Shown piece after piece: positions 3,982 to 25,662 of a stretch of DNA of 64,000 nucleotides (the first letter of the stretch is position 1; every line of letters begins with the position of its first letter). The DNA is taken from positions 5,776-69,775 of the forward strand of contig JBHHVI010000001.1 in NCBI GenBank assembly GCA_046754225.1, written 5' to 3'. The notes beneath the pieces were generated by a model, which saw only the letters and a list, made by a program, of their open reading frames with translations, ran no database searches and had not been told where the DNA came from. Source of the DNA: Thermodesulfobacteriota bacterium. Lineage in GTDB: Bacteria > Desulfobacterota > GWC2-55-46 > JADFVP01. Made by a program: the position numbers and the translations under genes.

Positions 3982-4785
3982 ATGGAGAAGACAATGGGCG
4001 ACAGTAAAACAAAAAAAACAAAACCGTTGACCACGGGTGACAGGACCATCCCCCCCGAAGGCGCGAAGATGATAACCATCTATATAATGGGCAGGGAGTA
4101 TCAGGTCCCCGAGACGCTGACCATTATGAAGGCCATCGAATACGCCGGCTACAAGTATGTAAGGGGCTGCGGGTGCAGGGGCGGAATATGCGGCGCCTGC
4201 GCGACATTTTACCGTTTTACGGGGGACTACAGGCTTAAGACGGGGCTCGCCTGCCAGACGGTGGCCCAGCCCGACATGATAATAATGCAGCTCCCCTTCT
4301 TTCCGTCAAACAGGCCCGATTACGACCTCGAAAAAATCAAAAGCACCCCTCATGAAGAGCTGAGGAGCCTGTACCCCGAGGTCTTCAAGTGCGTGGGCTG
4401 CGGCACATGCACGAGGACCTGCCCCATGGATATAGACGTTATGGACTATATAGCCCTCATGAAGAGGGGCGATCTCAAGGGCGCGGCTCTTAAGAGTTTT
4501 GACTGCGTCCTCTGCGGGCTTTGCGCATCGAGGTGCCCGGCCCAAATTTCCCAGTTCACGGCGGCCATGTACGTAAGAAGGCTTTACGCCAAGGTGATGA
4601 CACCCGCGGCCGCGCACCTGAAGAAGCGCGTCGATGAGATTGAGGGCGGAAAATACGTGGAGTTGCTCTCGAAGCTTACCGCCATGAACCCCGATGACGT
4701 GAGAAAGCTTTATGTGGAGAGGGAAAGGGAGCCGGATATGTCCGAGCCGGGCGAATGGATGCCCGAGGACAAGGAGAATCTTTAA
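3982..4785 (+). CDS. Succinate dehydrogenase/fumarate reductase iron-sulfur subunit-like protein (2Fe-2S followed by two CxxCxxCxxxCP clusters)
   Basis: 267 aa with CGCRGGICGACA, then CVGCGTCTRTCP and CVLCGLCASRCP. An alternative start lies at 4069 (MITIY). It is paired with the flavoprotein downstream. Confidence 0.6.
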   Translation: MEKTMGDSKTKKTKPLTTGDRTIPPEGAKMITIYIMGREYQVPETLTIMKAIEYAGYKYVRGCGCRGGICGACATFYRFTGDYRLKTGLACQTVAQPDMIIMQLPFFPSNRPDYDLEKIKSTPHEELRSLYPEVFKCVGCGTCTRTCPMDIDVMDYIALMKRGDLKGAALKSFDCVLCGLCASRCPAQISQFTAAMYVRRLYAKVMTPAAAHLKKRVDEIEGGKYVELLSKLTAMNPDDVRKLYVEREREPDMSEPGEWMPEDKENL

Positions 4786-4838
4786 AGGGTCGATGATTAT
4801 CGGCATAAAAAATATTTCTTTTTAGTCAAGGAGTAAAG

Positions 4839-6488: not shown

Positions 6489-6544
6489 AGAAGCCATGTT
6501 ACGTGATCCGTAAAATTGGCAAAAATCTTTAAAGGGGATTATTT

Positions 6545-7714
6545 ATGAACATCCACGAGTATCAGGCGAAGGAGATTCTCGCGAGGTTCGGCGTACCTGT
6601 ACCGAAAGGCCGTATCGCCTTCACCCCCGCCGAGGCCGAAGAGGCGTCAAGGGAATTTTTTGAAGAAGGGACAAGCGGCGTATGCGTGGTCAAGGCCCAG
6701 ATACACGCCGGAGGAAGGGGCAAGGCCGGTGGAGTAAAACTCGCCAAGTCGCGTGAGGAGGCCGCAGGCTTCGCAAAGGAAATCCTCGGCGCCACCCTCG
6801 TCACGCACCAGACCGGACCGGCCGGAAAAGAGGTTAAAAAGGTCCTCATAGAGCAAGGGTGCCGCATAAAAAAAGAGTTTTACCTGAGCCTTGTCGTTGA
6901 CAGGTCCACTGACAGGGTTACCGTAATGGCCTCAAGGGAGGGCGGCGTCGAGATAGAAGAGGTGGCGGCCCGGAGCCCTGAAAAGATATTAAAGGAATCA
7001 ATCGACCCGGCCACGGGGCTCATACCATTTCAGGGAAGAAAAATAGCCTTCGCCCTGGGACTCGACAAGAAGGCCGTGGGCAAGGCCGTCAAACTCATCT
7101 CGGGACTTTATAATGCCTTTGTGGAGAGCGACTGCTCGCTCCTTGAGATAAACCCCCTCGTCCTCACCGAAGAGGGGGACCTCCTCGCCATCGACGCGAA
7201 GATTTCGCTCGACGACAGCGCCCTCTTCAGGCACAAGGATATCGAGGGCATGCGTGACCTCGACGAGGAGGACCCGGGCGAGATAGAGGCCTCGAGACAC
7301 GGCCTGAACTACGTATCCCTTGACGGGCATATCGGCTGCATGGTAAACGGCGCCGGCCTCGCCATGGCCACCATGGACATAATAAAACTCTACGGAGGAA
7401 ACCCTGCCAACTTCCTCGACGTGGGAGGAGGCGCCACGAAGGAGCAGGTCACGGCCGCCTTCAAGATACTCGTGGCCGACCCCCGCGTTAAATGCATCTT
7501 CGTAAACATATTCGGAGGCATAATGCGCTGCGACATAATAGCCGAGGGCATTGCGGCGGCGGCGAAGGAAGTGGGGCTAAGCGTCCCCCTCGTAGTGAGA
7601 CTACAGGGCACCAATGTGGAAAAGGGCAGAGAGATATTGTCGAATTCGGGCATCGACATCATCACGGCCGAGCATATGGACGAGGCGGCTGAAAAGGCAG
7701 TGGCGGCGGGTTAG
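6545..7714 (+). CDS. sucC: Succinyl-CoA synthetase beta subunit
   Basis: [22 protein letters not shown]..., the ATP-grasp N-terminus typical of SucC. It is followed by sucD. Confidence 0.9.
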
Positions 7715-7753
7715 TTTTTTAATATCGAACTGAAAAAAGCGGAGCATTTTATA

Positions 7754-8629
7754 ATGAGCATTCTCGTAAATCAGGACACAAAGGTAATCTGTCAGGGCAT
7801 CACCGGCGAACAGGGCACGTTCCATACCCGCCAGATGGTGGAATACGGCACCAATATGGTGGGGGGCGTAACTCCGGGCAAGGGCGGCGTCGAGGTGGAC
7901 GGCATACCGGTCTTCAACACGGTGGACGAGGCGGTCAGGAAGACGGGCGCCGACGCCACTGTAATATATGTGCCGGCCCCCTTCGCCGCCGACGCCGTAA
8001 TGGAGGCCGTAGACGCCGGCGTACGTCTCGTTATCTGCATAACCGAGGGCATACCCGTGGTGGACATGGTTAAGGTCAAGAGGTTCATGGACGGCACGCT
8101 CTCAAGGCTTGTGGGGCCGAATTGTCCCGGCGTGATAACCCCGGGCGAGTGTAAAATAGGCATTATGCCCGGCCACATCCACAAAAAGGGCAAGGTGGGG
8201 GTCGTGTCAAGGAGCGGCACCCTCACCTACGAGGCCGTAGACCAGCTCACAAGAACGGGGCTCGGTCAATCCACCTGCGTGGGCATAGGCGGAGACCCGG
8301 TGAACGGAACGAATTTTATAGACGTACTTGAGATGTTTGAAAAGGACGCCGATACCGAGGCCGTTGTGATGATAGGGGAGATCGGCGGCACCGCCGAGGA
8401 AGAGGCGTCTGTATTCATAAAAGAAAATATGACGAAACCCGTCGTCGGGTATATAGCGGGCGTTACCGCCCCGAAGGGAAAGAGGATGGGACACGCCGGG
8501 GCTATAATATCCGGCGGGAAGGGCACGGCGGCGGAAAAGATGGCCGCTATGGAGGAGGCAGGCATCAGCGTCACGAAAAGCCCGGCGGATATAGGCAAGA
8601 CCATAGTTGAAGTCCTTAAAAAAGTCTAA
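7754..8629 (+). CDS. sucD: Succinyl-CoA synthetase alpha subunit
   Basis: [24 protein letters not shown]..., a CoA-binding domain with the conserved phosphohistidine region. Confidence 0.9.
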
Positions 8630-8645
8630 TTTCGCTCATTAGCGG

Positions 8646-8674
8646 TTGACGCGCGCCGGGGTTCGTGATAAAAA
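8646..8674 (+). promoter_or_regulatory. Candidate sigma70-type promoter (TTGACG-N17-TAAAAA) upstream of korD
   Basis: Hexamers were read by eye in the sucD-korD intergenic region. The -10 hexamer is weak. Confidence 0.25.
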
Positions 8675-8764
8675 AGAAATTCGCAAAAATATCGATTTAA
8701 GCAAAAAAAGCGGCCTGTTATAATAAAAAAACTCACCAGCCAAACATTACGGGGTTATGGGGTC

Positions 8765-8971
8765 ATGATGGTAGAAGCGGCGAAAAAACTTCCAAACATA
8801 GTAATAAACGAAAAGTTCTGTAAGGGATGCAGTATCTGTGTGGACTTCTGCCCCACCAACGTACTTGAGATGAAGGGTTCCATATGCGCTGTAAAGGACC
8901 TTGATGCCTGCACAAGATGCCAGCTCTGCGATCTCCGCTGTCCGGACTTCGCCATCCAGGTATTTGATTGA
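8765..8971 (+). CDS. korD: 2-oxoglutarate:ferredoxin oxidoreductase delta subunit (2x[4Fe-4S] ferredoxin)
   Basis: 68 aa with CKGCSICVDFCP and CTRCQLCDLRCP. It immediately precedes korA. Confidence 0.75.
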   Translation: MMVEAAKKLPNIVINEKFCKGCSICVDFCPTNVLEMKGSICAVKDLDACTRCQLCDLRCPDFAIQVFD

Positions 8972-9022
8972 TCTTTAATGACAGAGCCTTACCATTACCA
9001 TTCTTGAGGGGTTTAAGAAAAC

Positions 9023-10159
9023 ATGTCAAAAAAAAGAATGAAAAAACTTTTGCAGGGCAACGAGGCCTGCGCCGAAGGGGCGCTTTACGCCGGTTGCAAG
9101 TTCTTTGCCGGTTACCCCATAACACCTTCCACTGAAATAGCCGAGATTATGAGCGTAAGGCTTCCCAAGGTGGGCGGCAAGTTCATACAGATGGAGGACG
9201 AGATAGCATCGTTAGGTGCGGTCCTCGGGGCCTCACTTGCCGGAAAAAAGAGCCTCACCGCCACTTCCGGGCCGGGCTTGTCACTCAAGCAGGAGGCCCT
9301 GGGCTACGGATGTATAGCCGAGATACCCTGTGTCATAGTTGATGTCATGAGGGGCGGCCCTTCGACGGGATACCCCACGGGGCCTTCCCAGTCCGACATT
9401 ATGCAGGCCAAGTGGGGCACCCACGGAGACCACCCGGCGGTGGCCATAACACCGGCCTACGTTCAGGAGATACTTACCGAGACTATAAGGGCCTTTAATA
9501 TAGCGGAAAAATACAGAACCCCCGTCATCATTCTTTACGACGAGGTGGTGGGGCACATGAGGGAGCCCATAGAGATACCCGAGCCCGGAGACTACGAGGT
9601 CGTAGACAGGGCCAGGCCCGATTGCTCACCCGAAGATTACCTCCCTTACGACGAAAAATACCTCGTCCCCCCGCTCGCCCCCTTCGGTGAAGGGTACCGT
9701 TTCCATGTGACCGGACTCAACCATAAGGCCGACGGGTTCCCCGTCAACGACTCCAATGTCATAGACGCGAACAACCGCAAAATCATGAGAAAGATCGATG
9801 ACAACATCGACGATATCGCCAAGAACGAAGAGATCTGTCTCGATGACGCCGAGATCGTTGTATTCACCGTAGGCTCCACTTCAAGGTCTGCGCGCTACGC
9901 CGTGAACGCCGCGAGGGAGAAGGGCATAAAAGCGGGCCTCCTGAGGCCGCTCACCATATGGCCCTTCCCTGACAGGATTGTGGGCGAACTGGCGAAGAGG
10001 GTAAAGGCCTTCATAGTGCCGGAGATGAACCTCGGGCAGATGGTCCTCGAAGTAAAGCGCGCCTCAGAGGGCGCCTGCGCGGTAGAGGGGATACACCGCG
10101 TGGACGGTGAGATGATAAACCCCGCGCAGATTCTTGACGTCATAAATAAATACACCTAA
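9023..10159 (+). CDS. korA: 2-oxoacid:ferredoxin oxidoreductase alpha subunit
   Basis: 378 aa. The N-terminus MSKKRMKKLLQGNEACAEGALYAGCKFFAGYPITPS is typical of KorA/PorA. Confidence 0.85.
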   Translation: MSKKRMKKLLQGNEACAEGALYAGCKFFAGYPITPSTEIAEIMSVRLPKVGGKFIQMEDEIASLGAVLGASLAGKKSLTATSGPGLSLKQEALGYGCIAEIPCVIVDVMRGGPSTGYPTGPSQSDIMQAKWGTHGDHPAVAITPAYVQEILTETIRAFNIAEKYRTPVIILYDEVVGHMREPIEIPEPGDYEVVDRARPDCSPEDYLPYDEKYLVPPLAPFGEGYRFHVTGLNHKADGFPVNDSNVIDANNRKIMRKIDDNIDDIAKNEEICLDDAEIVVFTVGSTSRSARYAVNAAREKGIKAGLLRPLTIWPFPDRIVGELAKRVKAFIVPEMNLGQMVLEVKRASEGACAVEGIHRVDGEMINPAQILDVINKYT

Positions 10160-10185
10160 CTAACGAAGAAAGGTCGGAGGTAATT

Positions 10186-11040
10186 ATGGGTGCACCGGCG
10201 GTCAAACAGAAAGTAAGCGTACCCTTTGATTATAATAAGTACTTAAGGAAGGATAAACTCCCCCATATATGGTGCCCGGGCTGCGGTCACGGGATCGTGC
10301 TGAAGTCGCTTTTGAGGGCCATAGACAAGGGCGGACTCAAAAAGGACGATATATGCATGGTCTCCGGCATCGGGTGTTCGAGCAGGACCCCGGGGTACGT
10401 GGACTTCAACACCCTCCATACGATCCACGGACGCGCCTTTGCCTTCGCCACCGGCGTGAAACTGGCGAAACCGGAACTTAACGTCATGGTGGTCTCAGGC
10501 GACGGAGACGCCCTCGCCATAGGCGGAAACCACTTCATACATGTCTGTAGAAGAAATATCGACATGACCATCCTCGTATACAGCAACTCCATCTACGGCA
10601 TGACCGGGGGCCAGTACTCGCCCACGACGCCAGAGGGTTCCGTGGCCACTACAAGCCGCTACGGCAACATAGAGCCGCCCTTCGACTGCTGTGAGATGGC
10701 CAAGGCCGCCGGCGCCACATTCGTCGCCAGGGGGACCGCCTACCATACGCTTGAGCTGGAGAAGATCCTCCTTGAGGCCATAAACCACAAGGGCACATCC
10801 GTCGTGGAGATAATCGACTCATGCCCCATATATTACGGCCGCATGAACAAGTTCAAGAGCGCGAGCCAGATGATGGAAATAATCGAAAAAGAAGGCACCG
10901 TATCGGTTAAACAGGCCGACAGACTCCCCCCTGAGAAGGTCGAGGGCAAAGACCTCCGGGGTATTCTTCACAGGGCTGAAAGGCCGGAATATTGCGAAAA
11001 TTACGACAACCTTATCGTCGGCAAGGCAACGGCAAAATAG
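10186..11040 (+). CDS. korB: 2-oxoacid:ferredoxin oxidoreductase beta subunit (TPP-binding)
   Basis: It has CPGCGHG and the GDG...N TPP-binding motif. Confidence 0.85.
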   Translation: MGAPAVKQKVSVPFDYNKYLRKDKLPHIWCPGCGHGIVLKSLLRAIDKGGLKKDDICMVSGIGCSSRTPGYVDFNTLHTIHGRAFAFATGVKLAKPELNVMVVSGDGDALAIGGNHFIHVCRRNIDMTILVYSNSIYGMTGGQYSPTTPEGSVATTSRYGNIEPPFDCCEMAKAAGATFVARGTAYHTLELEKILLEAINHKGTSVVEIIDSCPIYYGRMNKFKSASQMMEIIEKEGTVSVKQADRLPPEKVEGKDLRGILHRAERPEYCENYDNLIVGKATAK

Positions 11041-11168
11041 TGCCTTTTAAGAGGGAGCGCTTACGATAGCCGCATTTACGATAAGGCCGCATTGGTCTCA
11101 GGCGACAGTCTAAATAGAGTGGTTCGCCGGGTTCACCGTTTATCATTAAGAGGAGGTCTTTAAATACA

Positions 11169-11720
11169 ATGGGCGCGAGATACGAGATACGCTTCAGCGG
11201 ATCAGGCGGCCAGGGCATGATACTCGCCGGTATCGTCATGGCCGAAGCCGCATCCATTTACAGCGACAAGAACGCGGCGCAGAGCCAGTCCTACGGGCCT
11301 GAATCAAGGGGCGGAGCGAGCAAGGCCGAGGTCATTATAAGCGACCAGGCCATAGACTACCCCAAGGCCACCTCCATAGATTGCATGCTCGCCCTTACGC
11401 AGCAGGCCTGCAGTAAATACCATGGGGACATCAAAAAGGGCGGCATCCTGCTTATAGATTCCGACGAGGTGAAGGACGTTCCCCAGGGGGACTTCAAGCT
11501 TATGAGTTTCCCCATCATAGAGACTGCGCGCACGGCACTTGGAAAGACCATCGTCGCCAACATCATATCTCTGGGCATGATAACGGAGCTCACAGGCGTA
11601 GTCACCCACGAGGCCATGGAACAGGCCGTTCTTTCCAGGGTGCCCAAGCCATTCCTCGACCTCAACAAGAAGGCTCTTCAGATAGGCTTTGAAAAGGCCA
11701 GGGAGTTGAAAGGCTCTTAG
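11169..11720 (+). CDS. korC: 2-oxoacid:ferredoxin oxidoreductase gamma subunit
   Basis: 183 aa. IRFSGSGGQGMILAG is the start typical of a gamma subunit. Confidence 0.8.
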   Translation: MGARYEIRFSGSGGQGMILAGIVMAEAASIYSDKNAAQSQSYGPESRGGASKAEVIISDQAIDYPKATSIDCMLALTQQACSKYHGDIKKGGILLIDSDEVKDVPQGDFKLMSFPIIETARTALGKTIVANIISLGMITELTGVVTHEAMEQAVLSRVPKPFLDLNKKALQIGFEKARELKGS

Positions 11721-11893
11721 CCGGCACTTATCACTCCGGGCCGGAATAACCTCCGGCCTTTTTTACATAAAACCCCTTTTGTAAATTCAGTGAACTCTCG
11801 GTAAAGATTTTTCATACAAAAGAATTGAAATACATCCTTGACACAGAGCAGTGAGAGTCCCGGGAGGTTATTCTGGTTATCCATGATCTCATA

Positions 11894-13543
11894 GTGGTCG
11901 GAGGGGGGCTCGCAGGGATGAGGGCCGCCATAGAGGCCGCAAAGGGCGGACTCAACGTGGCTCTCGTCACCAAGGTCTATCCCGTAAGGAGCCATTCCGT
12001 GGCCGCACAGGGGGGGATAAACGCCGCCCTCAAGGCCGAGGACTCCTGGCAGGACCACATGCACGACACCGTAAAGGGGAGCGATTTCCTCGCCGACCAG
12101 GACGCCGTGGAGGTCCTCTGCAAGGAGGCCCCAGAGGATATCCTCGAGATAGAGTCCATGGGCGGCATCTTCAGCCGCGACCCTTCCGGCGACATAGCCC
12201 AGAGGCCTTTCGGCGCCGCGAGTTTTCCCAGGACCTGTTATCTCTCCGACAGGACGGGGCACAGTCTCGTCCACGTCCTCTACGAACAACTCCTTAAATA
12301 CGCCGTCGTTGTGTACGAGGAATGGTACGTTATAAAACTCGTCGTCGAGGAGAATATAACACGCGGCATAATCGCCTATGAGCTCTCGAGCGGGAAACTC
12401 CACCGCCTCCACTCAAAGGCGGTCCTTCTCGCCACAGGGGGCTACGGCCGGGTTTATAAAACTACGACCAACGCCCTCACCTCAACGGGTGACGGCATGG
12501 GGCTCGCGCTGACTGCCGGGGCCGAGCTCATGGATATGGAGTTCGTCCAGTTCCATCCCACGGTGCTGAAACGCACGGGCATACTTATGACCGAGGGGGC
12601 AAGGGGCGAGGGAGGATACCTCCTTAACTCAAAGGGTGAGCGGTTCATGGAGCGCTACGCCCCCCATGCCCTCGAGCTGGCAAGCCGCGACGTGGTATCA
12701 AGGGCGGAGCAGACCGAGATAGAGGAAGGCAGGGGCGTTGACGGCTGCGTGCTCCTCGATATCAGGCATCTCGGAAGAGAAAAAATACTGGAGCGCCTCA
12801 GCCAGATCCGCGACCTCGCCATCGACTTCGCCGGGGTAGACCCCGTGGAGGAGCCTATCCCCGTACGGCCCGGAGCACATTATTCCATGGGCGGCATCAA
12901 GACGGACGTGGACGGGGCCACGTCCGTTACAGGGCTCTACGCCGCGGGTGAATGCGCATGTGTGAGCGTACACGGCGCCAACAGGTTAGGGGGCAACTCG
13001 CTCCTTGAAACGATCGTCTTCGGCAGGCGCGCCGGGGCGAAGGCCGTGGAGTTCGCAGAGAACTCTCCCCTCTCGGACTTCCCTGAAAGCTTCCTGAAGG
13101 ATACGGCCAATGAAATCGCCGACATGGTAAAGGTTGAAAACGGGGAGACCGCCTACTTGATAATGAATGAACTGAAAGAGACGATGGAGGAATGCTGCGG
13201 CGTCTTCAGGGACAGAGAAAGGGTCACGAGGGGGCTTAACAAGGTAAAAGAACTGAAGGAGCGTTTCCCGCGTATTTCGCTCTCGGACAGGAACGACTAT
13301 TTCAATACCGAGCTCCCCGGTCTCATCGAACTTAAAAACATGCTCGACATCTCCGAGGCGATCCTCATGGGCGCCGTTGAGAGGAGAGAGTCCAGGGGCT
13401 CTCACTGCAGGACAGGTTTTCCAGGTCGTGACGACAAGAACTGGCTCAAGCATACCACGATAAAAAAAGAAGGCGGCGGGTATAAACTTGGATACCGCGA
13501 GGTAACCATAACAAAATTCCAGCCTGAGGAAAGAAAATACTAA
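11894..13543 (+). CDS. frdA: Fumarate reductase/succinate dehydrogenase flavoprotein subunit
   Basis: [12 protein letters not shown]...[14 protein letters not shown] (covalent-FAD His) ...HYSMGGI...[12 protein letters not shown]. Nt 11894 is GTG. The frame stays open upstream as HDLIVVGGG, so the true start is probably a non-ATG codon near 11870-11880, downstream of a GGGAGG at 11862-11867. Confidence 0.85.
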
Positions 13544-13573
13544 GCCGGTATAATTAATAAATTCTTCTGAACA

Positions 13574-14536
13574 ATGAAAATACAGATAAAGATAAAACGC
13601 TTCAACCCCTCGGAAGGCGAATCCAGTGAGCCTTACATACAGGCCTATAACGTAAAAGCGGCCGCCGGGATGAGTATCCTTGAAGCGCTCCTGAAGATCG
13701 CCGAAGAGGAAGACCCCACCCTCGGCTTCAGAAGGTCCTGCAGGTCCGCCATATGCGGGTCCTGCGCCGTAAAGATAAACGGCTTCTCGAAACTCGCCTG
13801 CAAGACGCAGATAATCCCGGAATACAAAAAGCAGGGAGCGCTCCTCATAGAGCCCCTCGCAAACTACCCGGTCCTTAAAGACCTTATAGTGGGCTTTGAC
13901 AGGTTCTGGAATAACATGGGTAAGGTTACGCCCTACCTGACGCCGGCGGCCGGGGCCCTGCACATGGAAAAAATAACCAAAGAGGACGCCGACAGGATAG
14001 ACAGTTCTCAGAAATGCATCATGTGCGGCTCGTGCAACTCCGAGTGTAACGCCCTTGAAATCGACTCCCATTATATAGGCCCCTCGGCGCTGGCCAAGGC
14101 GTGGAGGTTCGTAGGCGACGTGCGGGAGGGGGCGCCGGAAAAGAGGCTCAGGCGCATGAGCGCCGAGCACGGCATGTGGGACTGCGTGAGATGCGTGCAC
14201 TGCACCCAGTACTGCCCCAAACAGGTGGCGCCTTTAAAACAGATAGAGAGACTCCGCTCGGGGGCCATAAAGAAGGGGCTCCATGACAACCCCGGGGCCA
14301 AGCACGTCCTCTCCATGTCGAACTCCATAAAGCGCGTGGGACGCCTCGACGAGGCGGCTATGACCTTCAAGACCCTCGGGTTTCTAAGGTCTCTGGGCAT
14401 GATACCCTTCGGGATAAAGATGGAGATCCACGGCAAGATGCCCAAGCCCCTCATATTTTCCCAGATAGGCGGTATCGATGAAGTCAAAAAGATATATGAA
14501 GAGATTGAAGGGGCAGAGGCGGAGGAGAAAAAATAG
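13574..14536 (+). CDS. frdB: Fumarate reductase/succinate dehydrogenase iron-sulfur subunit
   Basis: A 2Fe-2S motif (CRSAICGSCAVKING) is followed by CIMCGSCNSEC and CVRCVHCTQYCP. Confidence 0.85.
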   Translation: MKIQIKIKRFNPSEGESSEPYIQAYNVKAAAGMSILEALLKIAEEEDPTLGFRRSCRSAICGSCAVKINGFSKLACKTQIIPEYKKQGALLIEPLANYPVLKDLIVGFDRFWNNMGKVTPYLTPAAGALHMEKITKEDADRIDSSQKCIMCGSCNSECNALEIDSHYIGPSALAKAWRFVGDVREGAPEKRLRRMSAEHGMWDCVRCVHCTQYCPKQVAPLKQIERLRSGAIKKGLHDNPGAKHVLSMSNSIKRVGRLDEAAMTFKTLGFLRSLGMIPFGIKMEIHGKMPKPLIFSQIGGIDEVKKIYEEIEGAEAEEKK

Positions 14537-14542
14537 GTTACA

Positions 14543-15415
14543 ATGGATAAACTGAAGTACGCATATTATCCCGGCTGCGCCTCCAGTGAGATGACCAAAG
14601 AGGCCAACGATACGACACGGCTGGTGGCCTCGGCCCTCGGCATTGAACTTCGTGATATGCCCAGGGCGAACTGCTGCGGCGCCGGGCTCATGAAGGACTA
14701 CGACTATGACCTCAACATAGCGCTTAACGCCCGCATCTTCGCCGAGGCCGAGGTGATGGGCCTTGATATCATGACCATATGCTCAACGTGTCTCATGGTG
14801 ATGAGTACGGCCAACAGGGACTTGAAGCGCGACGCCGGGCTCCTCGAAAGGACAAACCTGATACTTGAAAGGGCCGGGCTCCATTACAGCGGAAAGGTTG
14901 AGGTAACGCAGCTTCTCTGGGTCCTCGCGAAGGATTACGGTCTTGAAAACCTCAAGCGGCAGGTGACCAAGCCGCTCAACTGGCTCAAGGTAGCGCCCTT
15001 TTACGGTTGCCACAGCCTGAGGCCATCGGACGCCCTCGGCTTTGACGACCCGGAAAAACCTGAGTCTCTCGAGTCGGTCATAAAGGCCGTGGGGGCCGAT
15101 GTGGTGGATTACAAGGGAAAGACCAAATGCTGCGGTTTTCAGATTAACCTTGTAAGTGAGGATACGGCGGTGGGCATGACGGGAACGAGGCTGCTTGACG
15201 CCAAGGCAGGCGGCGCAAGGTGCGTGGTGACCCCATGCCCTTTCTGCCACATAAACCTCGATAACTACCAGGGGTTGGCGGAGAAAAAGGTAATGCATAT
15301 GATAGGCCTGCCCGTATTTCACCTGCCCCAGCTTGTGGGCCTGGCGATGGGGCTCACGGCCGAGGAGATGGGGCTCTCGCGCCACCTCGTAAGCATGGAA
15401 GGGATTTACAGGTAA
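14543..15415 (+). CDS. HdrB-like CCG-domain subunit (SdhE/FrdE of type-E succinate:quinone oxidoreductases)
   Basis: 290 aa with two cysteine-rich CCG-type domains (YYPGCAS...CCGAG and YGCHS...CCGF...CPFCHINLD), directly after frdAB. Confidence 0.75.
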   Translation: MDKLKYAYYPGCASSEMTKEANDTTRLVASALGIELRDMPRANCCGAGLMKDYDYDLNIALNARIFAEAEVMGLDIMTICSTCLMVMSTANRDLKRDAGLLERTNLILERAGLHYSGKVEVTQLLWVLAKDYGLENLKRQVTKPLNWLKVAPFYGCHSLRPSDALGFDDPEKPESLESVIKAVGADVVDYKGKTKCCGFQINLVSEDTAVGMTGTRLLDAKAGGARCVVTPCPFCHINLDNYQGLAEKKVMHMIGLPVFHLPQLVGLAMGLTAEEMGLSRHLVSMEGIYR

Positions 15416-18981: not shown

Positions 18982-19998
18982 TCAGTATATCCCCTTCGCC
19001 TTCCAGTACTCCCTCACCTTCTTCTTGAGCGAATCGGGCAGCGGCACATAGACGAGCCTCTCGGCGGTCTTGTCGCCGTTTTCATAGGCCCAGTCATAAA
19101 ACTTCACCACCAGTCTGTTCGAGTCTTTTTTCTCTTTGGCGAGGAGGATAAAGGTGGCCCCGGCAATGGGCCAGGCCTTTTTCCCGGGTGCGTTTACGAG
19201 CCATAGGTAAAAGTGCTTATCAGGGTCGAAGCTGGCAGAGGCGGCGGCGGCCTTGAAGCTGGTGAAGTCGGGCTTTACGAATCTACCGGCCGAATTTTTG
19301 AGAGAGACGTAGTTCATGCGGCTCTGCTTGGCGTAGGCGAATTCAACGTAGCCTATGGAGTTCTTTACCCTTTTTACATAGTTGGCGACCCCCTCGTTGC
19401 CCTTTCCGCCTATGCCCACAGGCCATTTAACGGCCTTGCCGGCCCCGACTGTCTCTTTCCAGTCGTTGCAGACATTGCTTAAGTAGCTCGTATATATGGC
19501 GGTCGTGCCCGAGCCGTCGGAGCGCCTTACAACGGTTATCTTTTTATGGCCGACGTTAAGGCCCGGGTTCAGCTTCTTTATCGCGACGTTATCCCAGTAT
19601 TTGATATTACCGAGGAATATGGAGCAGAGCAGCCCGGAGTCCAGTTTCATCTGCCCCGTTTTTACGCCCTTAATATTTATTACAGGCACAACCCCGCCGA
19701 TTACAGCCGGGAACTGGAGAAGTTTCTTCGCGGCGAGTTTGGAAGGCTTTAAAGGGGCGTCGGAGGCGCCGAAGTCCACCGTCCTGTTGGATATCTGCCT
19801 CTGCCCGCCCCCCGAGCCTATGGACTGGTAGTTGAGCTTAACGCCCGTATCCTTATAATAAGCCTGCCCCCACGCCGAATAGACGGGGTATGGGAATGAC
19901 GCCCCGGCGCCGTTCAACATCCCTTTGGCGTAGCTGTCGGTTACACCGGAAAAACCTATAAAGATCGTTACTATGGCAACAATTAATGACCTCAACAT
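18982..19998 (-). CDS. pstS: Phosphate ABC transporter substrate-binding protein
   Basis: 338 aa with a signal peptide and PBP motifs (GAGASFPYPVY...GSGGG). Confidence 0.85.
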   Translation of the reverse strand: MLRSLIVAIVTIFIGFSGVTDSYAKGMLNGAGASFPYPVYSAWGQAYYKDTGVKLNYQSIGSGGGQRQISNRTVDFGASDAPLKPSKLAAKKLLQFPAVIGGVVPVINIKGVKTGQMKLDSGLLCSIFLGNIKYWDNVAIKKLNPGLNVGHKKITVVRRSDGSGTTAIYTSYLSNVCNDWKETVGAGKAVKWPVGIGGKGNEGVANYVKRVKNSIGYVEFAYAKQSRMNYVSLKNSAGRFVKPDFTSFKAAAASASFDPDKHFYLWLVNAPGKKAWPIAGATFILLAKEKKDSNRLVVKFYDWAYENGDKTAERLVYVPLPDSLKKKVREYWKAKGIY

Positions 19999-20226
19999 CT
20001 TTTTTTCTCCTGATTTAGATTGAAGGCTGAAAAGAAACTGTCTATTTTTAACATGGATACCGCTTTTCTTTATCTTATACGCCCGCGCTCGGCGAGGCGA
20101 TTTTTTTTAATTAGGGGCGGGGATGAGCCGCCCCCGGAGGTGGATGAAGAGCCGTCCAGTATTATATACCGGGACGGCATTTACGGGGTTTTTTTATGCA
20201 CTCCCCGTAAATTCCTTTAACCGGCC

Positions 20227-21420
20227 CTAAAAAACATACTGGGCCTGAACAAACAGTTCATTCTCATCCGTGCCGGTAACGCCCTTGAGGTCCTTGCCTA
20301 TCCTGTAAGTGGCCTGGGCCTTGATGTCGTGCCCGTGCAAAAAGAGGTTCGCGCCGAAGGAGGTCCTGGTCCACTCAGTGGCGTAGTTGTCCGCGTCCTG
20401 CGACTGGTACCCGGCTACGACCTCGAGCCTGCCGGGAACAACCATATAGCCGCCCTCTACGGCAAAGTTCGTAAGTTCGGTGGTTCCGTTCCTGTATATC
20501 CCGCCGGTAAAGGTATCGTCAACGGTGTCGGCGTTGAAGATATTGTACTCCGCGTCAAGGGATGCGCCCATGTAACGGATGGCCCCGCTTGCCTCAAACC
20601 CCGTGACACTATCGACATCCGGCTTTCCGGAACCGTTATCAACGCCGGCGGTGGTGTAGGTGTTGTTGTCGCCGTCGTTGTTCCATCCGAAGCCGGCTAC
20701 GGTGACGGTGCCCTTTAAATCACCCTTCTTAAGGTCACCCTGCGACAGACCGAGGTGCCCGAAGGGATGAAAACTTACGCGCGCGCCGTACATCCAGCCC
20801 TGATTGAAGTCCGAGCTCTTGTTTATAGGCGAATCAAAGTCGAGCTTGTTCTGGTCCGGGTCTACATCGGCCGCGGCCACCGAGACTCCGTACTCTATCT
20901 TTTTGTCCATCTGCGTGCCGAGTACGGCGACGCCCGCGTTCCTGTCCGGGCTCCCGTAGTTGTGGTCTCCCACAAAGGTCCTCTCGATTAATTCCTGCTT
21001 CTTCGAGGATGTAAGCGCCTCTCTTGAGAAGCGGAAGTATGTGTTGCCCAACTGTACCTTTACGTCCTTAAAACCCCTGTACTCGATATAGGCGTCCTTT
21101 ATGGCGATCTCGTTGTCTCCGCTCGCCTCTCCCATGTCCCACTGGAACTTGCCGATCCAGTCCTTATGGACGCTCCCCTCTATAAAGGGCCTCAGGCGCC
21201 TGAAAAATATCTTGTCCGAGGAAGTCCCTGCGTCGGGGTCGGTTAGGTGGTATTGGAGCTGAATCCGCCCGCCGACCTTGACGAATTTCTCGCCGTTCTG
21301 ATACACCGTTATGCCGGACGCCTCGGCCCTTTGCGGGATGACAACCGAAGCCGTATTAAATATAACCGCGCCTCCTAAAATACCCGCCAACAGACATGTT
21401 GCTCTCCTTTTCATGCTCAT
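20227..21420 (-). CDS. Phosphate-selective porin (OprO/OprP family)
   Basis: 397 aa with a signal peptide, beta-strand-rich sequence and a C-terminal ...AQYVF, in a Pho-regulon context. Confidence 0.7.
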   Translation of the reverse strand: MSMKRRATCLLAGILGGAVIFNTASVVIPQRAEASGITVYQNGEKFVKVGGRIQLQYHLTDPDAGTSSDKIFFRRLRPFIEGSVHKDWIGKFQWDMGEASGDNEIAIKDAYIEYRGFKDVKVQLGNTYFRFSREALTSSKKQELIERTFVGDHNYGSPDRNAGVAVLGTQMDKKIEYGVSVAAADVDPDQNKLDFDSPINKSSDFNQGWMYGARVSFHPFGHLGLSQGDLKKGDLKGTVTVAGFGWNNDGDNNTYTTAGVDNGSGKPDVDSVTGFEASGAIRYMGASLDAEYNIFNADTVDDTFTGGIYRNGTTELTNFAVEGGYMVVPGRLEVVAGYQSQDADNYATEWTRTSFGANLFLHGHDIKAQATYRIGKDLKGVTGTDENELFVQAQYVF

Positions 21421-21469
21421 TCCTTTTTTCCTTTCAGGTTTTTGTTTAGAAAACTTTTTGCAATAAATA

Positions 21470-21670
21470 TCAGAAACCCGCCGCCTTTTTCACCTGCCCC
21501 TTTGCCGCACCCGCTCCGCCCCTCAAAAGATATGCGAGCATGGTGGGACAACAAAAATACTCCACCGACAGGCAGTACTTACGCACATCATTCTCGCCCG
21601 GCGTCATGAGGGTAACAGAGGCATTGCATATTCTGTTTTTTTTAACTCCACCGAGATAGGGACATTCCAT
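21470..21670 (-). CDS. Small cysteine-rich protein of unknown function (66 aa, MECPYLGG...YFCCPTML...)
   Basis: A GGAGG ribosome-binding site lies 8 nt before the ATG at 21670. It sits 50 bp upstream of the porin gene and downstream of the Pho-box-like repeats. The six-frame ORF extends to 21706, but that start would lie at or upstream of the predicted transcription start. Confidence 0.45.
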   Translation of the reverse strand: MECPYLGGVKKNRICNASVTLMTPGENDVRKYCLSVEYFCCPTMLAYLLRGGAGAAKGQVKKAAGF

Positions 21671-21720
21671 ATTCCTTCCTCCTTTTTTCATTCTTTTTAA
21701 AGGCAATATACAGCGCCAAC

Positions 21721-21760
21721 GTTACAGCATTATGTCGGCTCAGTTACATTTATGTTACAG
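21721..21760 (-). promoter_or_regulatory. Pho-box-like array: four 7-nt direct repeats with 11-bp periodicity (minus-strand CTGTAAC/ATGTAAC/CCGACAT/CTGTAAC), followed by a TATATT -10 hexamer
   Basis: Seen directly. It resembles the E. coli PhoB box (CTGTCAT repeats with 4-nt spacers) and lies about 10 bp upstream of a -10-like hexamer at 21705-21710. Confidence 0.45.
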
Positions 21761-21941
21761 TTTTTGAGTCAAGCCGACCGGTCCCGTTGACGGGTAAACG
21801 CTCCTTGCCATACAAAAACAAGAACCTCGAAGGAAATAATGTTATGGAGAGAAACGTATCTTTGGAAAAGTTGTGCGTAAGCTGGGTCTTAATGGACAGG
21901 GCGGGGCAAATTTCAGCCCCCGTGAGACAAGTTATAAAAAA

Positions 21942-22979
21942 CTACTCCATCTTCAAAAGGTCGGGTATCCTCACACCCTTCCTGGCGCCTACCCCGCCGA
22001 AGACCGTCCCGGTCTTCCTCATATCGAACCTCTTCCGGGCGAGTTTATAGAGATCATCGGGTAGCGGTATGTAGCCCACCTCGACGCCAAGCCTTCCCGC
22101 GTTCTTGATGTAAAACTTTACGTAATCACCTATCTCCTCCCTTGAGGCGGCCTTTTTATTCACGTATATGAAGAGCGGCCTTGAAAGAGGCTGATAGGTG
22201 CCGTTGTCAACCGTCTCCCTCGTAGGATAGACGGCGCCTTTTCCGTTGGTGTCGTCCCCGTCGTCTATGGGGACGAGTTTTAATTTGTCCTTGTTCTTCT
22301 CGTAGTAGGCGAGGCCGAAAAAGCCGAGTGCGTATTTATCCCCGGCTACGGCCTTGGCAAGGACGTTGTAGTCATCGCTCTCGGTGTAGTCGGTCCGGCT
22401 TGCGCCCTGCTCGCCCACTATCGCCTTTGTGAAGTAATCGAAGGTGCCGTGACCTAAGCCAGGGGCGTAAAGGTGAACCTTCCTGTAAGGCCAGCCCTTC
22501 TTCAGCTGGCTCCACCTCGTCACCTTCTTCTCCGCCGCAGGCTCCCAGAGTTTTTCAAGGTCATTGACCTTCATGGACCTTACCCAGTTGTTCGAGGGGT
22601 TGACCACGACGGCTATTCCGTCGTACGCCACGGGGATTTCGATATACTCAATCCCGTTCTTTTCGCACTCAACGACCTCCTCAGGCTTTATGGGCCTCGA
22701 TGCGTCGGTTATGTCAACGTCGCCGCGGCAGAACCTTTTAAAACCTCCTCCGGTGCCGGAAATCCCCACCGTCACCAGGGTTCGGCCCTTCTTCGCTATT
22801 TGAAACTCCTCGGCCACGGCCTCTGTTATGGGGTAAACCGTCGACGAACCGTCAACTTTTACTATCTTACGGTCCGCCCCTGCGCTCTCCCGGGCAGTGG
22901 GAGCAAGGATAAACGCTACAGCCGCCATAAGGCACAGCGCATTTAAAAAACCGGGCCTGCCGGACATCTTTGTTCTCAT
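21942..22979 (-). CDS. Second PstS-family phosphate-binding protein
   Basis: 345 aa with a signal peptide and KVDGSSTVYPITEAVAEEF...GISGTGGGF, a type-2 PstS-like periplasmic binding protein. Confidence 0.75.
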   Translation of the reverse strand: MRTKMSGRPGFLNALCLMAAVAFILAPTARESAGADRKIVKVDGSSTVYPITEAVAEEFQIAKKGRTLVTVGISGTGGGFKRFCRGDVDITDASRPIKPEEVVECEKNGIEYIEIPVAYDGIAVVVNPSNNWVRSMKVNDLEKLWEPAAEKKVTRWSQLKKGWPYRKVHLYAPGLGHGTFDYFTKAIVGEQGASRTDYTESDDYNVLAKAVAGDKYALGFFGLAYYEKNKDKLKLVPIDDGDDTNGKGAVYPTRETVDNGTYQPLSRPLFIYVNKKAASREEIGDYVKFYIKNAGRLGVEVGYIPLPDDLYKLARKRFDMRKTGTVFGGVGARKGVRIPDLLKME

Positions 22980-23285
22980 CTCAACATACTCCAGCCTTTA
23001 AATTTTGACTGATTCAGCTAACAGCCTCACACCTTCCACCCCTTATATGACACATTTAACCCCACTTTTCAACTGGACTCTTATACAGGGTATGTGGAAG
23101 GCCTCCGCGCTTATTAACGGACAACACGCGCCGGGGCCGGCGCCCCTATGTCTTCATACCGGCCAGGCTGTCTTCATTCAGGATTTTTCATGAAAAATCG
23201 ATTTGGCGTTGACAGACAAACTTCATATCAGTTAGGATATAGCCGTTTTACCACTAAAATTAACATCTTAAAAGGAGTTTTAGTC

Positions 23286-24578
23286 ATGGCGGGAAAGAGC
23301 ACGAAAAAATCAGCGATCCTGATGAGAAAGGCCGTAAAGTTCATACCCGGGGGGGTTAACAGCCCCGTAAGGGCCTTTAGCGCCGTGGGCGGAAGGCCGG
23401 TCTTTATAAAGAGAGCCCGGGGGTCAAAGATATACGACGCCGACAAAAACTCCTACATAGACTACATAGGCTCATGGGGCCCCATGATACTGGGCCACGC
23501 CCATCCGAGAGTCGCCTCGGCCATTAAGAAGGCCGTTGACAGCGGCACCAGTTTCGGCGCGCCCACGGAGCTTGAAGTAACGCTCGCGGAGATGACCGTT
23601 AAGGCCTTCCCCTCCATGGAGATGGTCAGGTTCGTAAGTTCGGGGACCGAGGCCACGATGAGCGCGCTGAGGCTCGCCCGCGCCTATACCAAAAGGGACA
23701 GGATTATAAAATTCGAGGGCTGCTACCACGGACACGGCGACAGCCTTCTTGTAAAGGCCGGCAGCGGCGCGGCCACCCTCGGAGTGCCAACGAGCCCCGG
23801 AGTGCCGGCGGCCCTCGCCAAAAACACCTATACCGCCGTTTATAACGACATCGATTCCGTAAAAAAGATATTCAAGAAAGACCCGGGGGGAGTCGCCTGC
23901 GTTATAGTAGAGGGGATACCCGGGAACATGGGGGTGGTGCTCCCTAAAAACGGCTTTATTGAAGGGCTAAAGACGCTCTGCAGGAAATACAAGGCGCTCC
24001 TTATAATGGACGAGGTTATGAGCGGCTTCAGGCTATGCTACGGCGGCGCCCATCAGACATACAACGTCGAACCCGACCTGATATGCCTCGGTAAAGTGAT
24101 AGGCGGAGGGCTTCCCGTAGGGGCCTTCGGAGGCAGGCGTAAGATAATGGAGATGCTCGCGCCCACGGGGCCGGTATACCAGGCTGGGACCCTTTCCGGA
24201 AACCCCATAGCCATGACCGCCGGCATAGAGACATTAAAACTGCTTCAAAGGAAAGGCACGTACAAAAAACTATTCAATACGACGGTAAGGCTCACAGACG
24301 GCATAGAAAAAATCGCCAAAAAGAGAAAAGTCCCATGCCACACCGCAGTCGCAGGGTCCATGTTCACCGTCTTCTTCTCGGAAAAACCGGTCAGTAACTA
24401 CGGCGACGCCGCCGCCTGCAACTTGAAGAGGTTTTCAAGATATTTTACGAGGATGCTATCGGCGGGAGTAATGCTTCCACCCTCTCAGTTCGAGGCGAAC
24501 TTCGTAAGCCTCGCCCACACAAGAGAGGATATAGATAAGACCCTTGAGGCGGTGGAGAAGAGTTTCACGAGGCTTTAA
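23286..24578 (+). CDS. hemL: Glutamate-1-semialdehyde 2,1-aminomutase
   Basis: ILMRKAVKFIPGGVNSPVRAF...SWGPMILGH; AAKGGAG ribosome-binding site before the ATG at 23286. The six-frame ORF starts earlier at 23148. Confidence 0.9.
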   Translation: MAGKSTKKSAILMRKAVKFIPGGVNSPVRAFSAVGGRPVFIKRARGSKIYDADKNSYIDYIGSWGPMILGHAHPRVASAIKKAVDSGTSFGAPTELEVTLAEMTVKAFPSMEMVRFVSSGTEATMSALRLARAYTKRDRIIKFEGCYHGHGDSLLVKAGSGAATLGVPTSPGVPAALAKNTYTAVYNDIDSVKKIFKKDPGGVACVIVEGIPGNMGVVLPKNGFIEGLKTLCRKYKALLIMDEVMSGFRLCYGGAHQTYNVEPDLICLGKVIGGGLPVGAFGGRRKIMEMLAPTGPVYQAGTLSGNPIAMTAGIETLKLLQRKGTYKKLFNTTVRLTDGIEKIAKKRKVPCHTAVAGSMFTVFFSEKPVSNYGDAAACNLKRFSRYFTRMLSAGVMLPPSQFEANFVSLAHTREDIDKTLEAVEKSFTRL

Positions 24579-24603: not shown

Positions 24604-25662
24604 TCAGGCGAGGTTAAGGGGCAGCTTTTCTGGATGCTTCTGGGCCGTCTTTAAAACAAGTCCGGCGTAACGGGCCTCGACCTTCATCTCTAATTTTTCG
24701 GCCCTCTTGAGCGCCTTCTTTACCTTCATGAGGCCCCTTGCCGGGTCTACCCCGAATTCAATCTCCCCCGTTGATATGAGACAATAGATGACGCCCCTCC
24801 TGTCCCCCGTCTCCTTGAAGAGCCTTAAGGCCTCGATAAAATCCTTTTCAGCCCTTTTGACCCTGCCGAGCATCTGCAGACTCGTCCCCTCGGCCCAGAG
24901 CGTATAGGCGTAACTCACTCGGTCTCCAATCTTTTTGTAATTGCTCCGCGCCTTCCTGAAAAATTCGAGAGAGCCCTTATAATCCCCCTTCATCCTCATG
25001 GAATTGGCGATGCCGCAGTATGAATAGGCGAGGCCGAAGGTGTCCTTAAGTGAGGTAAATTGCCTGTTGGCCGACCTGTAATACTTGCCCGACGCCTTAA
25101 AATCCCCCATTACCCTCGAAACACCCCCGAGGCCCGTAAGACAGTAGGCCGCCCCGCTTCGGTCCTTGATCCGTGAAAATATCTTTTTCGCCGCGTGAAA
25201 ATCTCTTACGGAGCCCTTTAAATCGCCCATAAGCCTCAAGACCCCGCCCCTCGCCCATAATAAAAACCCCTCACCCTCACAGTCGGCGCGGCTCCTGTAA
25301 AACCTGAGGCAGTCGTTAAAGATGACCCTGGCCTCCTTTAGCCTGCCCGTAGCCCGTAAACTCAGCCCGAGGCCGGCCATGGCGTCAGAGGCCCTCACCT
25401 CATCGCCCATCTTCAGGAAAAGTTTATGCGCCCTGCGATAACACATCGAAGCCTTTGAAAAATCCCCGGTGAGCCTGTAGCAGTCGCCGAGGGAAAAAGA
25501 GCATTCGGCCCTCAAGTCCACATCAACGCCCGCGAGCTTCGATGCCTCGAGATAAAGGGCGGCGGCCTCTATAAACCTTGACCGCCTTCTCCTCGCTTCG
25601 GCCTTTAAAAAGATGGAATAGGGGTCGAAGGCGGCAGAGGGTCTTTCAGGTTTTTTCGTCAT
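24604..25662 (-). CDS. TPR-repeat protein
   Basis: 352 aa with repeated 34-aa-like units (…GDFKASGKYYRSA…, …GDYKGSLEFFRKA…). Confidence 0.7.
   Translation of the reverse strand: MTKKPERPSAAFDPYSIFLKAEARRRRSRFIEAAALYLEASKLAGVDVDLRAECSFSLGDCYRLTGDFSKASMCYRRAHKLFLKMGDEVRASDAMAGLGLSLRATGRLKEARVIFNDCLRFYRSRADCEGEGFLLWARGGVLRLMGDLKGSVRDFHAAKKIFSRIKDRSGAAYCLTGLGGVSRVMGDFKASGKYYRSANRQFTSLKDTFGLAYSYCGIANSMRMKGDYKGSLEFFRKARSNYKKIGDRVSYAYTLWAEGTSLQMLGRVKRAEKDFIEALRLFKETGDRRGVIYCLISTGEIEFGVDPARGLMKVKKALKRAEKLEMKVEARYAGLVLKTAQKHPEKLPLNLA

Follow-up and report, generated by a model that had tools for sequence, protein, structure and literature searches.

We analysed a window of 64,000 nucleotides (64 kb) of DNA from a Thermodesulfobacteriota bacterium (contig JBHHVI010000001.1, positions 5,776 to 69,775), with a focus on a candidate phosphate-starvation (Pho) promoter and the short gene behind it; all coordinates below are those of the window. 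On the minus strand, an array of four 7-nt direct repeats is followed by a promoter-like hexamer, a ribosome-binding site and an open reading frame (ORF) for a 66-residue cysteine-containing protein, here called small4C. Behind it lie the genes for a phosphate-selective porin and for pstS, pstC, pstA, pstB and phoU. Homologous loci from other genomes are referred to by L numbers.

21754-21760, minus strand: half-site 1, CTGTAAC, part of the distal dimer; identical in L003, and equivalent to the conserved GTAAC column block of 31 aligned promoters
21743-21749, minus strand: half-site 2, ATGTAAC, distal dimer; begins 11 nt after the start of half-site 1
21732-21738, minus strand: half-site 3, CCGACAT; a variant form of CcGTCAT (family consensus) and CTGTCAT (E. 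coli)
21721-21727, minus strand: half-site 4, CTGTAAC; promoter-proximal, at the place of a -35 element
21705-21710, minus strand: -10 hexamer TATATT; 10 nt downstream of half-site 4
21678-21682, minus strand: ribosome-binding site GGAGG; 7 nt ahead of the ATG at 21670, and kept in L001 and L003
21470-21670, minus strand: small4C, gene for the 66-residue four-cysteine protein and first cistron; matches the family hidden Markov model (HMM) at 2.5e-25, the only copy in the window

The four repeats had been reported in the initial annotation with exact 11-nt phasing, and they can be read directly on the sequence, as GTTACAG (21721-21727), ATGTCGG (21732-21738), GTTACAT (21743-21749) and GTTACAG (21754-21760) on the plus strand. 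On the minus strand, in box order, the array reads AAAAA CTGTAAC ATAA ATGTAAC TGAG CCGACAT AATG CTGTAAC, and box starts at 21760, 21749, 21738 and 21727 give an exact period of 11 nt. Half-site 4 is followed by GTTGGCGCTG, TATATT, GCCTTTAAAAAGAATGAAAAAAGGAGGAAGGAAT and the ATG. The same annotation had placed TATATT one helical turn beyond the boxes, and a ribosome-binding site and 66-residue ORF before the porin gene; both placements stand, with gaps of 10 nt from boxes to hexamer, 7 nt from GGAGG to ATG and 49 nt from small4C to the porin gene. There is no -35 hexamer, as the sequence at that position, ATAATG, is unlike TTGACA. Geometry and conservation together place the predicted transcription start near 21697 (21698-21696), with a leader of about 27 nt.

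The Pho box and its conservation

Within the 64-kb window, the dimer pattern CTGTAACN5TGTAAC is matched exactly by this array only. An 18-nt position matrix was built from the sites that precede homologous genes in other loci, with the window's own sites excluded; it includes sites of L003, a close relative of the window, and the independent test is provided by L019-L041. The proximal dimer (21721-21738) scores 19.3 bits and the distal dimer 16.1 bits, which rank first and second in the window ahead of a next best score of 12.4 bits, while the maxima of 20 shuffled windows average 13.9 bits and reach at most 17.5. The other gaps of the pst cluster carry no Pho box (2.6 bits between porin and pstS, 0.7 between pstS and pstC, and none in the internal gaps from pstC to phoU), and the array at 21721-21760 is the sole Pho box of the window's pst cluster. 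Of the 24 independent loci, 22 have a dimer whose score exceeds the 95th percentile of background; it typically ends 37-74 nt ahead of the start codon.

The nearest homologous locus whose intergenic region is complete is L003, from a Thermodesulfobacteriota metagenome-assembled genome, and comparison with it indicates where this region is constrained. The two loci share the same synteny (hemL, a PstS-family gene, the small ORF, porin and pstS), and 36 of 40 array positions are identical, the four differences falling in spacers or on the first base of box 3. The -10 hexamer and ribosome-binding site are also kept, and the distal 180 nt of the intergenic region cannot be aligned. More broadly, the layout of four boxes plus -10 stands ahead of the homologous gene in 31 non-identical promoters, whose gap-free alignment yields the consensus GTAAC-N6-TAAC-N4-CtGTcATAaTCCcGTAACA-N9-10-TAtaaT. 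Half-site 3 of the window aligns to CCGTCAT of L005, L007, L015, L021, L023 and L028. As T1, A2 and T6 are the most conserved positions of the TAnnnT block, which lies at a fixed distance from the boxes in all 31 promoters, we regard the hexamer as a real -10 element.

The array resembles PhoB sites from two cultured models. The E. coli Pho consensus is CTGTCAT-AxAx-CTGTCAy, with 7-nt repeats and 4-nt spacers (PMC3333781), and the Desulfovibrio vulgaris PhoB consensus consists of (c/t)GTnAC repeats (PMC3333781, PMC6456213). A D. vulgaris PhoB site validated by electrophoretic mobility shift assay, AGGTTACAGCATAGTTAC, is the reverse complement of GTAAC-TATG-CTGTAAC (PMC3333781, PMC6456213). Three boxes of the window read TGTAAC, which fits (c/t)GTnAC, and box 3, CCGACAT, resembles CTGTCAT. 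Thus the core half-site is identical to that of D. vulgaris PhoB (DVU1083), although the sites described there are single dimers. In promoters of the E. coli pstS type, four repeats accommodate two PhoB dimers, end 10 nt from the -10 element and replace the -35 element. The window has the same direct 7-nt repeats, A/T-rich 4-nt spacers, repeat number, 10-nt distance and -35 substitution, and in L005 the dimer CCGTCAT-AATC-CTGTCAC is nearly the E. coli consensus itself. It differs from that type in preferring GTAAC to GTCAT as half-site, and in that its first gene encodes a small cysteine protein, followed by the porin, rather than PstS. Within the Pho-box class, this promoter is thus unremarkable: it belongs to the E. 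coli pstS type and carries a half-site of the Desulfovibrio kind.

The genes that follow the motif in relatives bear on whether it responds to phosphate. In about 330 kb of related loci there are 57 matrix matches of at least 15 bits, none of which lies inside an annotated gene. Fifty-four precede a gene in the same orientation: small4C (35), psiE (4), a PhoB-like regulator (4), pstS (3), porin (2), receiver-domain genes (2), and DAGK, MIP, pstC and a 120-residue gene without a family (1 each); the remaining 3 have no annotated gene downstream. Several loci carry two small4C copies, and in L009 and L023 each copy has its own Pho box. For the regulators encoded in these phosphate islands the best match is PhoB (TIGR02154), and for the kinases it is PhoR/PnpS. 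Because matrix matches precede canonical Pho genes, and because of these best matches, the motif seems to act as the Pho box of this lineage. Together with the half-site shared with D. vulgaris PhoB, the footprint in L003 and the E. coli-like geometry, this supports the earlier reading of the array as a genuine Pho box, to which PhoB would be expected to bind.

It could be argued that the boxes are bound by another regulator of the OmpR family, whose half-sites resemble each other, or that they repress a constitutive sigma-70 promoter (GTAACA-18 nt-CATAAT), and that phosphate has no part in its control. A promoter scan does score GTAACA/CATAAT at 9/12, the window has no phoB, and the PhoB-like regulators of relatives fall below the NCBIfam PhoB cut-off. 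However, CATAAT belongs to the box consensus (GTCATAAT), such that both 'hexamers' of the scan are parts of boxes, and a separate TAnnnT block lies at a fixed distance below box 4 in the 31 promoters, as expected for activation from the -35 position. Further, the motif also precedes psiE, pstS, porin and phoB-like genes, which constitute a canonical Pho regulon, and its half-site is that of D. vulgaris PhoB. We therefore consider control by something other than phosphate very improbable.

The small4C family and its gene neighbourhoods

The predicted small4C product is MECPYLGGVKKNRICNASVTLMTPGENDVRKYCLSVEYFCCPTMLAYLLRGGAGAAKGQVKKAAGF. Comparison with an 85%-identical homologue in L001 yields a ratio of nonsynonymous to synonymous substitution rates (dN/dS) of 0.14, and comparison with L003 gives proportions of nonsynonymous and synonymous differences (pN and pS) of 0.20 and 0.83, the synonymous sites being saturated. 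Small4C is thus a genuine protein-coding gene under purifying selection. A profile search of 1.84 billion representative proteins returned 49 members, including one spurious match, a 1609-residue repeat protein (P0003), which was discarded because it owed its score to summed repeats. A word-indexed search with a 50-sequence profile extended the family to at least 94 clusters at 90% identity, all unnamed or 'hypothetical', and every cluster with a source name belongs to a 'Deltaproteobacteria bacterium' or a Thermodesulfobacteriota metagenome-assembled genome. A genome scan, which used an 8-sequence subset carrying TEEHYRCP and whose 23 genome loci are consequently biased to the main subfamily, added one genome under the label Nitrospirae and several whose label is simply 'bacterium'; all relatives are metagenome-assembled and their taxonomy labels are coarse. 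Protein-profile, word-indexed and genome searches found no homologue in cultured Desulfovibrio.

Matches range from 45 to 107 residues, and the 88 aligned members from 54 to 84. Their consensus is M-x-CPYL-x8-VC-x-AS-x-T-x-M-x-P-x7-YC-x-TEEHYRCP-x-LLA-x2-LR-x-G, with a conserved start M-x-C-P-Y-L, and about 16 non-cysteine positions are at least 85% conserved within a family whose identity falls to about 30%. The window protein has five cysteines (positions 3, 15, 33, 40 and 41), as originally described, but only four of them are family features: C15 and C41 are invariant in 88 of 88 sequences and C3 and C33 occur in 87 of 88, whereas Cys40 is not conserved and derives from replacement of Arg40 in the window and L001. 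The spacing C-x11-C-x17-C-x7-C is found in 56 of the 88, and the first gap is x10 in 17. In the subfamily that comprises the window, L001 and L003, His38 is replaced by Tyr or Phe, and aromatic residues are kept at positions 38-39. Mean net charge is -2.2 in an acidic core of about 50 residues and +2.8 in the basic, variable tail.

No known family accounts for this pattern. The window protein has no match in Pfam-A or NCBIfam, where searches with 50 and 88 members gave only scattered matches at E > 0.01; a sequence-profile search of the PDB with the family found no match, and a literature search on the EEHYRCP motif and on Pho-regulated small cysteine proteins returned nothing relevant. By inspection, without a dedicated predictor, no signal peptide or lipobox was found in small4C, and maximal 17-residue hydropathy averages 0.76 across the family. 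The protein lacks a hydrophobic segment, and its conserved N-terminus follows directly on a strong ribosome-binding site, with no room for a signal peptide. Judged from these sequence features, small4C is a cytoplasmic protein of a new family.

Several familiar cysteine motifs were considered and rejected. The spacing C-x10-11-C-x17-C-x7-C contains no CxxC or CxxH knuckles, at variance with a classical Cys4 zinc finger or with the zinc ribbon that had been proposed as a prediction target. Metal binding, which the initial annotation had also raised, is plausible at a non-classical site. Five cysteines in 66 residues (7.6%, against a typical value of at least 15%), four in most members, together with the roughly 16 conserved non-cysteine positions, do not fit a metallothionein. 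The H-Y-R-C-P-x-L segment recalls the H-box of histidine kinases (H-E-L-R-T-P-L), but its register is off by one and Tyr replaces His in the window subfamily. A glutaredoxin-like CPYC lacks its second cysteine here, and a thioredoxin fold would need a longer protein.

Its position as a short first reading frame behind the promoter, 49 nt from the next gene, had also invited the idea of a cis-acting leader peptide (an upstream ORF), whose translation rather than product tunes porin and pst expression. That small4C heads operons of differing content in relatives might be taken in the same sense. Against this stand the dN/dS of 0.14, amino-acid conservation down to about 30% identity across a wide family and the near-invariant cysteines. 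Neither an attenuator nor a terminator was found before the porin gene, the RNA fold is no more stable than that of shuffled sequences (z = +1.35), and an Rfam scan of 19900-23300 gave chance-level matches only. In L017 there is even a stand-alone copy, whose downstream gene is convergent. The leader-peptide suggestion is rejected on these grounds, and we regard it as having next to no probability.

The neighbourhoods of small4C were compared in 33 non-redundant loci, labelled by BLAST against a small Pfam-labelled reference set and with the family HMM rather than by full annotation. The arrangements, by number of loci or by locus, are:

15 loci (window, L001, L003, L015, L019, L020, L023, L024, L026, L027, L032, L034, L035, L036, L038): small4C directly upstream of, and co-oriented with, Porin_O_P
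2 loci (L005, L033): small4C separated from the downstream porin gene by one extra small ORF
4 loci (L021, L028, L031, L039): small4C directly before pstS
5 loci (L007, L009, L022, the second copy in L023, L029): small4C directly before a PhoB-like regulator gene
L011: small4C first in an operon for DAGK, PAP2 and monogalactosyldiacylglycerol (MGDG) synthase, associated with phosphorus-free lipid remodelling; in L025, divergent to such an operon
2 loci (L017, L030): small4C divergent to arsR-arsC

The initial annotation had proposed a search for homologues beside OprO/P porins, and these prove to be frequent, in 15 of the 33 loci directly upstream and in 2 more across a single ORF. The outcome that it had named as a refutation, a small ORF lacking conservation beside porin genes in relatives, was not observed. 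In 32 of the 33 loci, small4C has one or more phosphate-starvation genes within 6 kb, the exception being L030, where only ars genes were recognised. In about 10 loci, the gene immediately upstream of small4C encodes a receiver (REC)-plus-kinase protein whose core best matches PhoR, and several of these genes follow psiE. In view of the matrix counts and these neighbourhoods, the new part of the system appears to be the first cistron: a conserved, unannotated family that ranks among the core Pho-box targets of an uncultured lineage of sulfate-reducer-like bacteria, and is often the most prominent of them.

Some of these loci contain further arrangements of interest. A pair consisting of psiE, with its own Pho box, and a soluble REC-plus-kinase gene (about 356-410 residues) stands before small4C in L007 (4283-5799), L015 (4386-5923), L009 (735-2629), L020, L023, L040 and L041; the kinase core best matches PhoR/PnpS, no sensor or transmembrane domain was detected in it, and it may represent an unusual sensor-less PhoR variant. 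A Pho box also lies upstream of the DAGK-PAP2-MGDG synthase operon in L011 (5930-8699), where small4C overlaps the DAGK start by about 10 nt, and in L025 (3327-5853), which looks like phosphate-starvation lipid remodelling, from phospholipid to glycolipid, under PhoB control. Directly upstream of the porin gene, ORFs of 120-133 residues with no Pfam or NCBIfam match occur in L005 (6209-6610), L033 (5153-5299), L011 (11399-11752) and L013 (3774-4136), the last with its own Pho box. Finally, genes for an aquaporin (MIP) and an arsenate-reductase-like LMWPc protein are inserted in the pst operon (PstS-MIP-ArsC-PstC-PstA-PstB) of L020 (4748-6066) and L021 (7601-8787), and the pair recurs in L029 (4573-5647); in L017, L018, L026, L027, L030, L032 and L034 the phosphate island is flanked by ArsR-ArsC(-ACR3) operons. 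These arrangements suggest a built-in link, in this lineage, between arsenate detoxification and high-affinity phosphate uptake.

The foremost rival account of small4C starts from the same genes. Phosphate uptake also imports arsenate, and polyphosphate breakdown frees metals; an abundant small4C might thus be a thiol-based binder, buffer or chaperone which captures As(III) or metal and passes it to ArsC/MIP or to cation diffusion facilitator (CDF) exporters, and not a regulator. In favour are the ArsR-ArsC(LMWPc)(-ACR3) operons divergent to or near small4C in the seven loci just named, the MIP-ArsC pairs within the pst operons of L020 and L021, whose LMWPc proteins best match arsenate reductases, and the Cation_efflux and HMA_2 genes near small4C in L007, L011 and L013. 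Its first-cistron place, strong ribosome-binding site and several copies per genome would also suit a stoichiometric protein, and there is a precedent in the metalloprotein gene mtpA beside phoU in Streptomyces (PMC7866108). On the other hand, four or five cysteines in 66 residues afford a very low binding capacity, As(III) sites normally comprise three cysteines, and the window has no ars genes near the cluster. The conserved non-cysteine positions, moreover, point to a specific macromolecular partner rather than to simple chelation. Overall, we judge this alternative unlikely.

The predicted operon and the proposed role of small4C

The genes behind small4C, and the PstS-family gene upstream of it, were assigned as follows.

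20227-21420, minus strand: phosphate-selective porin (Porin_O_P), second cistron; PF07396, E = 1.2e-15, 58.1 bits against a cut-off of 20.9
18982-19998, minus strand: pstS; NCBIfam TIGR00975 / NF008171, above curated cut-offs
18754-17819, minus strand: pstC; NCBIfam equivalog
17817-16972, minus strand: pstA; NCBIfam equivalog
16993-16211, minus strand: pstB; NCBIfam equivalog
16172-15507, minus strand: phoU; NCBIfam equivalog
21942-22979, minus strand: upstream PstS-family gene; TIGR02136

Neither a terminator nor any notable structure lies in the 49 nt from the small4C stop codon to the porin ATG at 21420, so the two genes almost certainly share one transcript. Since the cluster has no other Pho box, this transcript is likely to extend into pstSCAB-phoU. 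The porin and pst genes themselves are ordinary. Like the PhoB-regulated phosphate and polyphosphate porins OprP and OprO of Pseudomonas, the window porin is a Porin_O_P member, under a Pho box and beside pst genes. In Pseudomonas, however, the porin gene directly follows its own Pho box, whereas here a conserved small gene intervenes as first cistron. The PstS-family gene at 21942-22979 has no recognisable Pho box in 22980-23147 (best matrix score -0.6 bits), though it adjoins the Pho-controlled operon. Neither psiE nor a second small4C copy was found elsewhere in the window.

Taken together, we think it probable that a double Pho box drives a small4C-porin operon, and we propose that small4C is a trans-acting accessory protein of the phosphate-starvation response. 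When phosphate is scarce, two dimers of phosphorylated PhoB would occupy the four half-sites, substitute for the -35 element and recruit RNA polymerase. Transcription would then run from about 21697 through small4C and porin, and probably on into pstS-pstCAB-phoU. In the protein, the four cysteines at fixed spacing may hold one metal ion (Zn or Fe) and so fold the acidic core of about 50 residues ahead of the basic tail, and small4C might be an abundant trans-acting subunit, accessory or regulatory, that binds a conserved partner such as the PhoR-like kinase, PhoU/PstB or PhoB. Action in trans with a conserved partner is favoured because of the roughly 16 conserved non-cysteine positions, the frequent placement of the gene between those for the kinase and the regulator, and the stand-alone copy. 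The metal-binding and partner-binding parts of this proposal are speculative, and we advance them tentatively. A bolder version, which we consider rather doubtful, makes small4C a so far overlooked core part of Pho signalling in an uncultured Thermodesulfobacteriota/'Deltaproteobacteria' lineage: a Cys4 mini-protein that senses metal or redox state, encoded between the gene for a sensor-less REC-PhoR-like kinase and phoB, and adding a second input (metal, redox or arsenite) to the Pho two-component system or to Pst/PhoU.

Two known proteins offer partial analogies. PhoU is likewise a non-transport protein co-transcribed with phosphate-uptake genes, and can serve as a functional analogy; there is no sequence relation, PhoU is separately present in the window, and small4C is the first rather than the last gene and a quarter of PhoU's size. 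The Streptomyces mtpA gene lies beside phoU and encodes a small cysteine-containing metalloprotein with a proposed link to stress sensing (PMC7866108). Both are genes for cysteine proteins in a phosphate-control locus, a likeness drawn from their descriptions; they differ in phylum and gene order, and small4C has too few cysteines for a metallothionein.

A number of points weigh against the proposed control and role of small4C. Neither phoB nor phoR lies within the 64-kb window, and the identity of the regulator is taken from relatives. Three GC-rich hairpins, among them TTTACGGGG...CCCCGTAAA and GGGGCGG...CCCGCCCC, occur in the 228-nt gap between porin and pstS (19999-20226, minus strand); all three lack a U-tract. 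A terminator, or a promoter that went unrecognised, could lie in this gap, and the corresponding gap of L024 and L036 has a Pho box of its own. Where a single genome has a paralogue at the head of several operons, a stoichiometric role at high dosage explains this no less well than regulation does. The window subfamily lacks the otherwise conserved His38 and Arg40, and roles that need these residues do not apply here. Two AlphaFold2 runs on the 88-sequence alignment gave a mean predicted local distance difference test score (pLDDT) of 56.5 and 63.3 and only two helices; these are poor, low-confidence models from which no fold or metal site can be taken, and Foldseek found 0 matches to the better one in the PDB. 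The family, lastly, is known only as predicted sequences, all from metagenome-assembled genomes.

The Pho regulon is among the best-studied bacterial stress circuits, with components catalogued in a few cultured models. Across dozens of genomes from the subsurface, the gene most consistently driven by a Pho box encodes an unnamed protein of 60-70 residues which curated databases do not recognise. If small4C modulates phosphate sensing or transport, or guards against co-imported arsenate, it would be a new component of phosphate homeostasis in anaerobes of aquifers and sediments, where phosphate and arsenic cycling are coupled. The analysis yields an HMM-ready family alignment with a fixed cysteine signature, a Pho-box matrix specific to the clade, with which regulons can be predicted in metagenome-assembled genomes, and a small, easily synthesised protein that is suited to direct biochemistry.

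Genes beyond the operon

Three observations concern the surroundings of the phosphate cluster. Divergent to the PstS-family gene, the hemL ORF (23148-24578, plus strand) is listed with about 50 codons too many at its 5' end; its NCBIfam match begins at residue 52, and the real start is probably an internal Met near 23286. A 352-residue tetratricopeptide repeat (TPR) protein (24604-25662, minus strand) partially matches HaaT of cyclophane-RiPP (ribosomally synthesised and post-translationally modified peptide) biosynthesis at E = 2e-32, far below the cut-off, which probably reflects generic TPR similarity. On the far side of phoU, the plus strand from 3982 to 15415 encodes succinyl-CoA synthetase, 2-oxoacid:ferredoxin oxidoreductase subunits, and fumarate reductase/succinate dehydrogenase-type flavoprotein, Fe-S and CCG subunits, a cluster consistent with a reductive or branched tricarboxylic acid cycle in an anaerobe.

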